From NCBI GenBank assembly GCA_963752475.1, contig CAVVYR010000008.1, positions 480,001-544,000 of the forward strand: 64,000 nucleotides of DNA. Reading direction: 5' to 3'. Positions within the stretch are counted from its first letter, which is position 1, and each line of letters starts with the position of its first letter. This DNA is from an uncultured Chloroflexia bacterium. Lineage in GTDB: Bacteria > Chloroflexota > Limnocylindria > Limnocylindrales > CSP1-4. The translations under genes and the position numbers were made by a program. Below are positions 39,068 to 44,060 of this stretch, piece by piece. Below the pieces are notes generated by a model that saw only the letters and a list, made by a program, of their open reading frames with translations, made no database searches and was not told the origin of the DNA.

Positions 39068-39143
39068 TGGCGCGCCCAACAGGATTCGAACCTGTGGCCT
39101 TCTGCTCCGGAGGCAGACGCTCTATCCACTGAGCTATGGGCGC
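39068..39143 (-). tRNA. tRNA-Arg(CCG)
   Basis: GCGCCCA acceptor stem, D arm, TCTGC-CT-CCG-GA-GCAGA anticodon arm, GGTTCGAATCC, encoded CCA; 76 nt. Confidence 0.96.
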
Positions 39144-39199
39144 GCGGAACACAATTAGACCACACGCCTGGGCCTGTCCACGTCCTCGACCCAGAGGCA

Positions 39200-39412
39200 G
39201 TGCGGACGCAGCTCGCGGGCATGAAGCAGGAGCGCGACGACTTCGATGCCCTGGTCGGTGTGCAAACGCCGTTCGTGCTGAACCTGGAGCCGCGGAAGAT
39301 GGCCGGCGAGGTCTCGGAAGCCATGTTCTTCGATCTCGGCTACGCCGATGGCGTGGACCCGGCGCCGACAGTGCCCGAGCGCCCGCTGCCCAACGGCACC
39401 CGCGCCGGCTGA
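39200..39412 (+). pseudogene. 5'-truncated tRNA-binding OB-fold protein (CsaA/Trbp111-like)
   Basis: RTQLAGMKQER...FVLNLEPRKMAGEVSEAM.FD.GY...P.RP.PNG matches the C-terminal half of the family; N-terminal D.RVG.I strand is missing. Confidence 0.65.
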
Positions 39413-39489
39413 CGGCCCGGGTCCTCAACCCACCTTGCCCCTGGTCGTAAACTAAAATTAAGAGAGGTCATCAACATTATTTGAGTGTG

Positions 39490-39536
39490 GGATTTCGACA
39501 GAAATCCTTGACTGGCATCAGCGCCAAGCCTAGTGT
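39490..39536 (+). promoter_or_regulatory. promoter and upstream palindrome of alkaline phosphatase gene
   Basis: TTGACT-N17-TAGTGT (39508-39536); GGATTTC-GACA-GAAATCC (39490-39507) abuts the -35. Confidence 0.55.
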
Positions 39537-39591
39537 GGTCGGACCGACTGTGCGGGGGCACAGCTCCGGTGACACAACGGGGGGAAGGTTC

Positions 39592-40974
39592 ATGAAGAGA
39601 CCACTCGCAGCCGCGCTCGCAGTAGCACTGGCCACTTGCACGGGAGCGATCGCACCGGTCGCGGCCGAGGAACCACAGGCGAACGCCAAGAGTGCCATCC
39701 TGCTCATCGGCGACGGCATGAGCCTGGCGCAACTGTACTCCGCCCAGATCTTCGCCGAAGAAGTGCTTGCGGACACACTCGTGATGCCAGGCATCGCGGA
39801 AACGGCTGTGACGCGGACGCACTCGGCCGATTCGATGGTCACCGACTCCGCCGCGGCAGGGACCGCGCTCCACAGTGGACAGAAGGCAGACAACGGTGCC
39901 ATCAACGTCCTGCCCGATGGCACCTGGGCCTACACGCTCGGACAGGCTGCTCAGGAGGCGGGCAAGTCGGTGGGTGTGCTGAGCACCGCCCGCATCACTC
40001 ACGCGACACCGGCGTCGGTCTACGGCCATGACGCCGACCGCGACATGGAGAACCTCTTCGCGGAGCAGATGGTCGAGTTCCTGCCCGAGGTGGCCCTCGG
40101 TGGTGGCGCCCGCCACTTCCTGCCCGACGGCAAGCGAGACGACGGCCTCGATCTCGTCGATGAGTTGGTCGCTGCCGGCTACACGAACGTGACCGACGCG
40201 GACGAGCTCGCGGCGGTCGACACCGAGAACACCGACTATCTGCTGGGGTTGTTCACCGGCTCTCACATGTCGTACGAGATCGACCGTGTGAACGCCGACA
40301 AGCCCGAACCATCATTGGCCGAGATGACGGCAGTCGCCCTGGACGTCCTGGACAATGACCCCGACGGCTTCTTCGTCTCGATCGAATCCGGCCGCATCGA
40401 CCATGCCTGTCACGACCACGACATCGCTGGCTCGATCTGGGACACGCTCGCCTTCGACGAAGCAGTCGAGGTGGCGCTCGACTACCAGGCCGAGCACCCC
40501 GACGTGCTCGTGATCGCGACAGCCGACCACGAAACGGCCGGCATGTCCCTCGGACACGGCACCGAATACTTCACCACCTTCGAGAGCCTTGCGGACGTGA
40601 CCTGCAGCCTGGCCTCGCTGAGCGACATGATCGGCGATGATCCCGGCAACGCCGTGGCTATCGCCGAAGGCTGTGGGCTGGTCCTGGGCGATGATCACGT
40701 CGCCATGCTGGGCGAACACCCGCCCGAGGCCGAGGAGGTCGAAGGCATGGACCTGGGCTACGCCTACACCTGGGCCCACTACGTGCTCGCGCTGGCCGAG
40801 GCCGAGATGGCCGGTATCGAGTTCGGGCCCTGGGCGCACACCGGTCTGCCGGTGATCACGTACGCCGTTGGACCGGGCGCCGAGATGTTCAACGGCACCA
40901 TCGACAACACCCAGTTGCCTGCCTACGTGGCCGAGGTGACGGGACTGACCATGGAGGCTCCCGCGATGCCGTAG
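39592..40974 (+). CDS. phoA: alkaline phosphatase (PhoA family)
   Basis: Signal peptide, LIGDGM, TDSAAAGTA (catalytic Ser), THATPA, E.GRIDHACH, TADHET, HT. Confidence 0.92.
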   Translation: MKRPLAAALAVALATCTGAIAPVAAEEPQANAKSAILLIGDGMSLAQLYSAQIFAEEVLADTLVMPGIAETAVTRTHSADSMVTDSAAAGTALHSGQKADNGAINVLPDGTWAYTLGQAAQEAGKSVGVLSTARITHATPASVYGHDADRDMENLFAEQMVEFLPEVALGGGARHFLPDGKRDDGLDLVDELVAAGYTNVTDADELAAVDTENTDYLLGLFTGSHMSYEIDRVNADKPEPSLAEMTAVALDVLDNDPDGFFVSIESGRIDHACHDHDIAGSIWDTLAFDEAVEVALDYQAEHPDVLVIATADHETAGMSLGHGTEYFTTFESLADVTCSLASLSDMIGDDPGNAVAIAEGCGLVLGDDHVAMLGEHPPEAEEVEGMDLGYAYTWAHYVLALAEAEMAGIEFGPWAHTGLPVITYAVGPGAEMFNGTIDNTQLPAYVAEVTGLTMEAPAMP

Positions 40975-40994
40975 GCCTCGACCACAGCACCGAG

Positions 40995-41027
40995 CAGAGG
41001 GGCAGCCGTGTGACGGCTGCCCCTCTG
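40995..41027 (+). terminator. stem-loop after phoA
   Basis: CAGAGGGGCAGCCGT/ACGGCTGCCCCTCTG. Confidence 0.65.
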
Positions 41028-41100
41028 TCGTAGGCCGCTATCGAACGCCCTGTCCTCGGTGGGCGTTCGCCGCGCTACCCTTACGGTGTAAACTCGAACC

Positions 41101-41569
41101 ATGGGAACCATCATCGCGCTCCTCGGAGCGTTGCTCATCGGCCTGGTCGCGATCGCGGGCGTCCTCTTCGGAGGGATGCGTGCGCACTGGCCGCCGGCCA
41201 CGGAGGCCGTCCGCCGGCTGACGATGCTTCTGAACAAGGGCCAGTCGGGTGCCGGAGGACCGGGTTCGAGCTACGGCAAGCTCCGGCACATCGGCCGCAG
41301 GTCCGGCAAGAGCTACGAGACTCCGCTGGGTATCGAGCGCACCGAAGACGGCTTCGTCATCGCCATCGTGTACGGGGAGAAGACCCAGTGGGCCAAGAAC
41401 GTGCTCGCCGCCGGCAGTGCCGAGATCGTGCTCGAGGGCGAGACCTACCCCGTCGAGCGGCCGGAGATCGTGCCCATCGAGGAAGCCAACGCCTACATCC
41501 CCGAGCGCGACCAGCGCATGTCCAGCCTCGTCGGTGTGACCGAGGCGCTGCGGCTCTACCATGCGGAGC

Positions 41570-41577
<8 letters not shown>
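41101..41577 (+). CDS. deazaflavin (F420)-dependent nitroreductase family protein
   Basis: H.GRRSGK.Y.TP, YG..TQW.KNVLAAG motifs; N-terminal TM helix. Confidence 0.8.
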
Positions 41578-42976
<1,399 letters not shown>

Positions 42977-43075
42977 GTCAGTCGGCTTGCCATCATCGGC
43001 ATGTGCCGCCAGGTCTGCCCGGAGGTCGTCGAGGGAAAGAGGGGACGGTGTCATCAGAAGACGCCCCCAGAATCG

Positions 43076-43105
43076 AAGCGACCCCGTCGAAACGGGGTCG
43101 CTTTT
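43076..43105. terminator. intrinsic terminator, probably bidirectional
   Basis: AAGCGACCCCGT-CGAA-ACGGGGTCGCTT followed by TT on plus strand. Confidence 0.75.
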
Positions 43106-43109
43106 AACT

Positions 43110-43250
43110 GTCCCGGCTGATCCGGAGCGAACTCCGGGTCTTCTGCCACGTCGCAAGGGCATCTATGACGCCGGCTTCACCGGCTACCCTAACCCAACCT
43201 ACCCATGACCTTGCGTCTAGGTCAGTAGTGCTGTCGAGCAGCACGGGGAC
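43110..43250 (-). ncRNA. candidate small structured RNA of unknown class
   Basis: End pairing GTCCC/GGGAC, internal CGCAAGGTCAT/ATGCCCTTGCG stem, CCGGAG-TTCG-CTCCGG hairpin, upstream TTGAGT-N18-TACTAT, downstream terminator. Confidence 0.55.
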
Positions 43251-43358
43251 GATAGTAAGCGCATACACCCCCGGAACTCAAGCGCTTATTCACCTTGCAT
43301 AGATGAAGGTTCCATAACATTTCGTCTCGCGCGTAGGATCCGACGCCCTTTGGGGTGG

Positions 43359-44060
43359 TCAGGAGACGGCGGCGATGGCCTCGCCCAGGTCGACCGCGCC
43401 AGTGAACAGCGCCTCGCCCAGGATGACACCCGCGACGCCGGCATCGCGCAGCTGCCGAAGCCCATCGAGGCTGTCGACCCCGCCGGCGACGACCACCTCC
43501 GCGTCGAGCCCGTCGGCGAGGCGCCGCATGACCTCGACGCCGCCCTCGCCCACGTGTGAGAACACGAATCGATACACGCCGGCCCCATGCAGCTCGACGA
43601 TCAGCTGCTCCAGCGTGGGTTCGGGACGATGGCGCCACGGGTAGCCGCGCAGGCTCGCTGGTCGAGCGTCTATGCCTACGGCCAGCCAGTCACCGCCGAC
43701 CTCGATCGACTCGGACAGGACGGCGTCGTCCTCGACCACCGCCCACAGCGGCATGACCACGCGGGTGGCGCCGGCCGCGAAGGCGATGCGGATCTGATCG
43801 GGTCCGTCGACACCACCAGCGAGTTGGAGCGGCTTGGCTACGGCGCGCGCGATGGCGCCGATGGCATCGAGGTTGGCCGGAGCCCCCTGGGTCGCACCGT
43901 CGAGGTCCACGAGGTGGACGGCCGGGGCGCCTTGGGCCACGAAGGCCTCGGCCACCTTCTCCGGCCTGTCCGACGGAGTGCCGATGCCGGTCGCCGCGCC
44001 CGGCCACCACACGAGCCGGGAGCGTCCCTGCTGCAAGTCGATGCTGGGCAGGACGTACAT
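43359..44060 (-). CDS. HisA/HisF-related TIM-barrel protein
   Basis: PSIDL..G, HLVDLDGA, QLAGGV, VGIDAR, VAGGV.S, G.ILGEALF. Confidence 0.8.
   Translation of the reverse strand: MYVLPSIDLQQGRSRLVWWPGAATGIGTPSDRPEKVAEAFVAQGAPAVHLVDLDGATQGAPANLDAIGAIARAVAKPLQLAGGVDGPDQIRIAFAAGATRVVMPLWAVVEDDAVLSESIEVGGDWLAVGIDARPASLRGYPWRHRPEPTLEQLIVELHGAGVYRFVFSHVGEGGVEVMRRLADGLDAEVVVAGGVDSLDGLRQLRDAGVAGVILGEALFTGAVDLGEAIAAVS

Follow-up and report, generated by a model that had tools for sequence, protein, structure and literature searches.

On the minus strand of the window (the whole stretch of 64,000 nucleotides analyzed here), the region from about 43244 to 43076 very probably represents a real non-coding RNA gene, separately transcribed and folded, of a family that has not been described. 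An earlier reading of the letters alone, which we call the sequence-only reading, had proposed a stand-alone structured small RNA of a new class at this place, and the proposal has held up: the gene has its own conserved promoter and terminator, its helices covary, and it has no match in Rfam. The Limnocylindria, in which it is found, are abundant in soils and fresh water and are mostly known from metagenome-assembled genomes; we know of no regulatory RNAs described from them.

Gene boundaries and promoter

Thirty loci from the window's own genus are nearly identical from the GUGCUG that begins at 43244 through to the end of the terminator, while both the spacer between the promoter boxes and the 6-8 nt after the -10 box are different in nearly every genome. 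In a wider BLAST comparison with 61 related genomes, the stretch was conserved in 59. The TTGAGT-N18-TACTAT element pointed out by the sequence-only reading is present and its boxes are conserved among relatives, whereas the spacer, 18 nt in the window, varies in sequence and is 17-18 nt long across the same-genus loci. Considering the kept boxes, the variable spacer and pre-start stretch, and the bounded conservation together, the pattern is that of a promoter, a transcript and a terminator. A consensus promoter and terminator scan gave nothing above its thresholds, the TACTAT -10 box being below threshold. The features of the locus are collected in Table 1.

Table 1. Features of the RNA gene and its surroundings, in window coordinates
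Feature	Positions	Strand	Remarks
Whole predicted RNA, about 169 nt	43076..43244	-	inferred start at G43244; last part is the terminator hairpin
Upstream box GTTATGGAACCTTCATC	43302..43318	-	family consensus about GGTTAAGGAATTTTCACC; kept upstream of the -35 box
Second conserved box ATGCAAGGTGAATAA	43286..43300	-	directly upstream of the -35 box
-35 box TTGAGT	43276..43281	-	(C)TTGAG kept in 30/30 same-genus loci
-10 box TACTAT	43252..43257	-	TAnnnT in relatives
P1, 5' hairpin GUGCUG-CUCGA-CAGCAC	43228..43244	-	double changes in 6/6 pairs (40 family sequences)
P2 closing helix, 5' strand ACUGACCU	43219..43226	-	A43222 unpaired
P3 core stem, 5' strand CGCAAGGUCAU	43205..43215	-	one U.C mismatch with its partner
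Internal loop, G-rich 5' strand GGGUAGGUUGGGUUAGGGUA	43185..43204	-	15 variants in 110 rows (98 loci, three families)
P4 hairpin GCCGG-UGAAG-CCGGC	43170..43184	-	2/5 pairs covary between families; 1/5 with double changes within the family
Internal loop, 3' strand GUCAUAG	43163..43169	-	pattern G-N-N-A-N-A-G
P3 core stem, 3' strand AUGCCCUUGCG	43152..43162	-	pairs with 43215-43205
P5 hairpin GACCCGGAG-UUCG-CUCCGGAUC	43119..43140	-	double changes in 8/9 pairs; contains CCGGAG-UUCG-CUCCGG
P2 closing helix, 3' strand GGGACAGU	43107..43114	-	covariation count on 40 sequences
Terminator hairpin, 12 bp, 4-nt loop	43076..43103	-	seen in the fold; stem pairs covary
His_biosynth-family gene	43359..44060		one flank of the RNA
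fumC	41561..42976	+	other flank, converging
Alkaline phosphatase gene	39481..40974	+	between tRNA-Arg(CCG) and the RNA
tRNA-Arg(CCG)	39068..39143	-	ancestral downstream neighbor, here 3.9 kb away

Two other conclusions of the sequence-only reading also stand. The strong terminator is the hairpin listed in the table, although on the minus strand its U-tail is weak and the scan left it below threshold; the UUUU run is on the plus strand, and the hairpin probably also ends the converging fumC transcript. A clear U-tail on the RNA's strand is found after the terminator in most other genera. The absence of any same-strand gene downstream was confirmed as well, fumC being the converging neighbor.

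The two boxes upstream of the -35 box suggest that transcription is under dedicated control. The one at 43302-43318, which would be a likely site for a dedicated regulator, is common to the window's family, to other genera and to the second order of the class, and its distance from the -35 box differs among them. A regulon sharing this box was considered and rejected, since its pattern GTWANGGAWNNTTNANC has a single match in the 4.25-Mb genome, at the RNA promoter itself. In some genera (loci L022, L053, L057 and L007), a palindrome of the form ATGCA-N3-TGCAT lies right against the -35 box; the window has a degenerate version of it (ATGCAAGGTGAAT).

RNA libraries give a weak hint of expression. 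Fourteen runs recorded as RNA, coming from several studies, contained 18-27% of the sampled words of a 551-nt query, a share that corresponds roughly to the length of the RNA. A single contig of 203 nt spans 43061-43246, so that its end at 43246 is two bases upstream of the inferred start, and two longer contigs include the promoter too; these contigs were assembled from four runs and carry no starts, ends, strand or level, and DNA carry-over into them is possible. One of the four runs (X4) had zero cover of the RNA, and the cover of fumC in the RNA-library runs comes from relatives.

Conserved fold

The RNA is predicted to fold into a 5' hairpin (P1), a closing helix (P2), a putatively functional arm consisting of P3, an internal loop and the capping hairpin P4, and a variable side arm (P5). 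The full-length fold has 37 pairs, of which 94.8% of cells are paired and 21 show double changes, at least one of them in every helix; these counts come from 40 sequences, of which 28 are from other genera and 12 were picked among the 30 same-genus loci so as to represent their variation, all fitted to a covariance model built from the genus (R2), so that the alignment leans towards that structure. All five helices are supported by compensatory changes in the relatives, and the G-U pairs are compatible with the minus strand only. P2 is paired in every one of the 40 sequences over its 7 pairs, with double changes in one pair and a one-sided change in another; its outer pair is G-C in 23, A-U in 13 and G-U in 4 of them, and it can be written as ACUGnCCY with GGGaCAGY, where the single freely varying base faces an invariant A. 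For P3, covariation was seen in 4 of 10 pairs across two families and in 5 of 10 within the window's family.

The case for the core was also made separately. In a two-family alignment of 50 sequences, which reduce to 15 distinct rows, 99.6% of the cells are paired and 6 of 15 pairs have changed on both sides, against at most 44.9% paired in a control where the partners were slid. An unaided RNAalifold consensus of the second order gave the same P3 stem, the open G-rich loop and a capping hairpin, in this case a 6-bp P4 stem with a GAAA loop. The arm of P3, loop and P4 is the only part common to all three families that have the RNA, and everything outside it is scaffold, built by each lineage from different sequence: the second order lacks the P5 arm and closes with GAUUC/GAAUC, and the small-genome family (the second family of the window's order) closes with AGCUG/CGGCU, as judged from sequences compared by eye. 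The loop of the side arm in the small-genome family (L031-L050) has a conserved sequence of its own, UGACUUGUUC, and part of it, CUUGUUCG, occurs a second time within the RNA, in its 5' single-stranded stretch.

Folding energy alone says less. The fold of 43076-43250, terminator included, has a z of -4.72, and that of 43107-43244, without the terminator, a z of -1.33, with 20 of 200 shuffles folding equally well. Since the energy stands out only when the terminator is included, the case for structure rests on covariation.

Several elements of the fold had already been seen by the sequence-only reading. The inner stem with one mismatch (43215-43205 with 43162-43152) is present and covaries; so is the apical GCCGG-UGAAG-CCGGC hairpin at 43184-43170, whose pairs covary, and so is the CCGGAG-UUCG-CUCCGG hairpin, which lies within P5. 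The outer closure that it described, GUCCC with GGGAC, does appear in the minimum free energy fold of the single sequence, but GUCCC differs in almost every relative. As GUCCC lies between the -10 box and the onset of conservation, this closure is a single-sequence folding artefact, and the conserved partner of GGGACAGU is ACUGACCU (43226-43219) instead. Its description of the whole as a rod does not apply to the window's family, which has a three-way junction; in the second order, the unaided consensus is a rod. For the switching that it suggested we see no evidence: GUGCUG/CAGCAC is the covarying P1, which coexists with P2, and UGACCU/AGGUCA is not conserved in other genera.

Two other helices were tried and rejected. 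RNAalifold on the window's genus alone offered a core pairing of AGGGUA with UGCCCU, which shows no covariation and, read by eye, is broken in L242 and L243, where P3 survives by compensating changes. In the window the two are close in energy, at -23.0 kcal/mol against -20.5 to -21.7 kcal/mol for the P3 fold; we reject it as the conserved fold, and it is a possible conformer. A helix CUGCC/GGCAG beside the core is disrupted in L241 and also in the window's subclade, where the sequence reads ACUGACC, whereas P2 fits all of the variation, again as read by eye.

Distribution

When searched with a covariance model (R1) of the 70-nt core, which spans 43149-43218 in the window, 141 of 151 genomes of the order were found to have the RNA, representing 25 of 27 genera. 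Across the class, the count was 96 of 151 genomes, the families with the RNA having it in 42/44, 6/6 and 47/50 genomes and those without it in 0/49 and 0/1; these class tallies include two unpublished genomes, G264 and G246, and become 45/48 and 94/149 when those are left out. Elsewhere in the phylum, the core model had no match in the 136 genomes of other families, and a permissive search of five genomes from the family lacking the RNA gave only hits of at most 16 bits with E above 4. The exact G-tract pattern was also matched in public records; among the matches listed, the record titles name Chloroflexota, mostly Candidatus Limnocylindria or Limnocylindrales.

The carrier genomes belong to three families and measure between about 1 Mb and more than 4 Mb, and nearly every one has a single copy. 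With the small-genome family, whose genomes are 1.0-1.4 Mb, only the central 70 nt are held in common, at about 83% identity. The fact that the 70-nt core has stayed almost unchanged while the neighboring proteins drop to about 55% identity implies that the RNA likely does something central. The RNA is a concrete, well-bounded candidate for Rfam, and its core is a defined object for binding and structure studies.

The G-rich loop and its possible function

The G-tract GGGUAGGUUGGGUUAGGG remarked on in the sequence-only reading is present at 43204-43187 of the minus strand, within the 5' strand of the internal loop. The loop is asymmetric, with 20 nt on one side and 7 on the other, between P3 and a capping P4 of 5-6 bp. 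All 15 variants of the long strand have the pattern G3-N2-G2-N1-3-G3-N3-G3 with all 11 G invariant, the consensus being G3-(U/A)A-G2-N1-3-G3-U(U/C/A)A-G3 and the short tract being GG without exception. The sequence of the linkers is variable, and so is the length of the middle one, at 1-3 nt. The short strand has six variants, all of which retain the two A as well as the G at either end, and the P3 pairs adjoining the loop (AAGGYCAU/AUGCCCUU) are nearly fixed in sequence.

The most likely mechanism, which we favor tentatively, is that of a trans-acting RNA that binds a protein through the G-cluster loop. Transcription begins at about G43244 from a housekeeping-type promoter and stops at about 43076 at the intrinsic terminator; the invariant G-clusters, the 3' strand of the loop and the flanking pairs would then make up a site of defined shape in three dimensions. 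This site would be recognized by a conserved cellular protein, which the RNA would either sequester or scaffold into a ribonucleoprotein. While the boundaries of the gene, its fold, its distribution and its lack of coding potential are shown, the action in trans, the protein partner and the identity of that partner are what we infer. A site of the protein type is indicated since sequence conservation extends over the two loop strands and the stem pairs next to them, and since the G-clusters stay fixed while the linker lengths change. Against it, none of the candidate partners was found in the genome, which is 88.79% complete: CsrA (PF02599), Hfq (PF17209) and Ro/TROVE (PF05731) all had zero matches.

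The G-rich single strand could equally serve as an antisense seed or as a site for a ligand. As an antisense RNA acting in trans, it would expose one or two seeds for C/U-rich sites in mRNAs and so alter their translation or decay. The anatomy is the usual one for such RNAs, with its own promoter, a long conserved single-stranded segment and a terminator, and the position is independent of the genes downstream. Nevertheless, 20 invariant nucleotides together with a conserved opposite strand and flanking pairs are more than a seed needs, and a contiguous duplex would be broken by a mid-strand insertion or deletion of the kind seen in the linker. Apart from the gene itself, no site in the genome reaches 20 complementary positions out of 23, a search that bears on long targets only; the lack of a long complementary target argues for a site of the protein type rather than an antisense seed. 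The failure to find Hfq in the 88.79%-complete genome also counts against this explanation, and altogether we consider it unlikely.

It seems quite unlikely, too, that the RNA senses a ligand by means of a vacancy G-quadruplex, in which the tracts of 3, 2, 3 and 3 G would stack into three quartets with one empty place. On this explanation, either a G from the 3' strand or a free guanine compound (GTP, GMP or an alarmone) would occupy the vacancy, and the action of the RNA would change as a result. What speaks for it is that the tract pattern is fixed in 15 of 15 variants, with GG exact and linkers of 2, 1-3 and 3 nt free to vary, that four G-tracts with short linkers are found in every variant, and that the loop is placed between two helices. 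There is precedent of a kind: in PMC5066627, DNA quadruplexes with a guanine vacancy are described as binding GMP or GTP, and an artificial GTP aptamer as forming an intermolecular quadruplex with its ligand. The class V GTP aptamer and the guanine-vacancy quadruplexes resemble the RNA here in having conserved G in asymmetric bulges between helices, and the G3-G2-G3-G3 series with its short linkers would fit the need for one vacancy; they differ in being artificial RNA and genomic DNA, and for the present RNA the energy model predicts no quadruplex (PMC5066627 for the known motifs). The quadruplex option of ViennaRNA predicted none in the RNA, in the core or in the isolated strand; a canonical quadruplex of three layers cannot form, and one of two layers was scored as unfavorable. 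Moreover, the conserved G could be contacts for a protein instead. Were the explanation true, the RNA would be a free-standing, trans-acting sensor of the guanine nucleotide pool and would correspond, as a natural RNA, to the artificial class V GTP aptamer, although a natural RNA quadruplex missing one guanine, with GTP, GMP or an alarmone completing its third quartet, is in our judgment very unlikely. The RNA does offer a test of whether loops with G-clusters, which may be quadruplexes, serve as functional RNA sites in bacteria.

Comparison with known RNA families

At the gathering scores of Rfam 15, only tRNAs were found in the window, and the RNA itself was without a match; for the region and for seven homologous loci, too, nothing other than tRNAs came above threshold. 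Relaxed searches of the window and the seven loci gave hits to istR, RsmY, rsmX, rimP and STnc100, which we rejected as they lie wholly or largely over the terminator hairpin. The sub-threshold scores for rsmX and RsmY, 13.9 and 21.9 bits, compare with gathering scores of 56 and 57.

The sequence-only reading had gone further and taken the RNA to be 6S- or Ms1-like, which we do not uphold: there is no match to the 6S model, and in the window's family the fold has a three-way junction and an asymmetric loop instead of a long rod. 6S RNA is a long rod with a closing stem, a large central bubble open on both strands and a long apical stem; it binds the RNA polymerase holoenzyme and templates a product RNA. 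Ms1, an actinobacterial RNA of about 300 nt that binds the core polymerase, is unlike the present RNA in size (135-170 nt here) and in host, which here belongs to the Chloroflexota. The 6S model had no hit in 42900-43450 even with E allowed up to 10, nor any in the genome with an E limit of 1, and Rfam 6S was found in none of 151 genomes of the class. Across the phylum, Rfam 6S is found in 34 of 151 genomes, which belong to particular families (e.g. 9/9, 5/5 and 4/4).

There remains the idea of a functional stand-in for 6S, an unrelated RNA that binds the polymerase holoenzyme with a loop mimicking an open promoter; we regard it as very doubtful. Like 6S RNA (RF00013), the RNA is single-copy, is 135-170 nt long, has a housekeeping-type promoter and carries a conserved loop between helices. 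The unaided consensus fold of the second order is a rod, and the class, with Rfam 6S in 0/151 genomes, stands opposite the phylum with its 34/151. Unlike 6S, however, the loop here is G-rich and strongly asymmetric (20/7 nt), the duplex beyond it is just 5-6 bp, the window's family has a three-way junction, and neither in sequence nor in structure is there any similarity to 6S. Both RNAs are missing from one family of the class and from many families across the phylum, so the complementary distribution carries little weight and is no evidence of replacement.

Other known systems offer partial likenesses. The CsrB/RsmZ sponges are also stand-alone RNAs in which conserved purine motifs would be the protein sites, the kind of mechanism favored here; they have many GGA in hairpin loops and need CsrA, whereas the RNA here has one G-cluster loop and no GGA. 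Domain IV of the SRP RNA shares the asymmetric conserved loop, the covarying helices, the short cap, and the single-copy, clade-wide occurrence, and its loop is a protein site, but the loop sequences are unrelated and the genome has a separate SRP RNA of its own on another contig. The 6C RNA of Actinobacteria is clade-wide and syntenic, with functional homopolymer-rich conserved loops that are C-rich hairpin loops. It is similar to the present RNA as a clade-wide syntenic small RNA with homopolymer-rich conserved loops, and dissimilar in that the clusters here are of G and in an internal loop; the present RNA also has no Rfam match. For Y RNA and Ro, neither a Y-like Rfam match for the RNA nor a Ro gene in the 88.79%-complete genome was found. 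In the library searched, no paper contains the G-tract strings, and among the papers listed there was nothing relevant on Limnocylindria small RNAs or on Chloroflexi 6S RNA.

Neighborhood and action in cis or trans

In the window, the RNA sits between the His_biosynth-family gene and the converging fumC. The ancestral order, all on one strand, is a DUF885 gene, the His_biosynth gene, one or two cyclophilin genes, the RNA and tRNA-Arg(CCG). A cyclophilin match was found at 39 of 40 loci of the window's family outside its genus, at 25 of 25 loci of the small-genome family and at 6 of 6 of the second order, compared with 6 of 34 in the window's genus, and in the window itself the cyclophilin genes are gone from the locus. 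At eight loci examined with Pfam, the cyclophilin gene is on the strand of the RNA and 78-239 nt separate its end from the RNA. We know of no RNA role for cyclophilin, this conserved upstream neighbor. Most genera (L239-L258 and others) have two tandem genes for cyclophilin-type prolyl isomerases upstream of the RNA, a longer one with an N-terminal extension (217-305 aa) and a short one of 153-165 aa.

On the other side, tRNA-Arg(CCG) directly follows the RNA on the same strand at 5/5 loci of the small-genome family, 7/7 of the second order and 6/18 of the window's family. The 3.9-kb gap in the window looks like a lineage-specific insertion or rearrangement; the stretch 39068-43076 holds the alkaline phosphatase gene and fumC, both on the strand opposite to the RNA, and fumC adjoins the RNA in part of the genus only. 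The genes downstream of the RNA vary among relatives. As the RNA is retained unchanged where the tRNA has been separated from it, which is the case in the window and at 12 of the family's 18 loci, it would appear to act in trans, on its own rather than on a neighbor.

The same observations bear on the suggestion that the RNA is a cis-acting leader of tRNA-Arg(CCG), or a partner processed together with it, whose terminator gates read-through. The tRNA is directly downstream at 18 of the 30 relatives' loci. But in the window's family, 12 of 18 loci have either no tRNA or a distant one and still keep the RNA unchanged, the gap in the window is filled with opposite-strand genes, and no anti-terminator pairing was seen. 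In several loci of the second order, a -10-like TAGACT or TACACT lies 12-18 nt before the tRNA, which suggests that the tRNA has a promoter of its own. An aptamer and terminator directly upstream of a same-strand gene, the arrangement of a riboswitch or cis-acting leader, was not found in the window, where fumC converges, although the tRNA does come next at the 18 relatives' loci just counted. The leader explanation is highly improbable.

Coding potential

A small protein gene of 46 codons, running from a GUG at the first base of the transcript to a UAA at 43106-43104, deserves next to no credence. This frame belongs to an ORF at 43104-43268, and in the window's genus each of 30 copies has it open across the core. 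In the second order, however, stops close every one of the three sense frames there in 20 of 20 copies; the open frame of one family in the window's order is not that of the other, third codon positions are invariant even though the neighboring proteins are only about 55% identical, the length of the middle linker differs by 1-2 nt between lineages, and there are zero Pfam matches. Because it is closed in the second order, the leaderless-style frame (43104-43244, minus strand) is probably a by-product of composition. In the small-genome family, no frame is open in 7 of 20 copies, and a different one from that of the window is open in the other 13.
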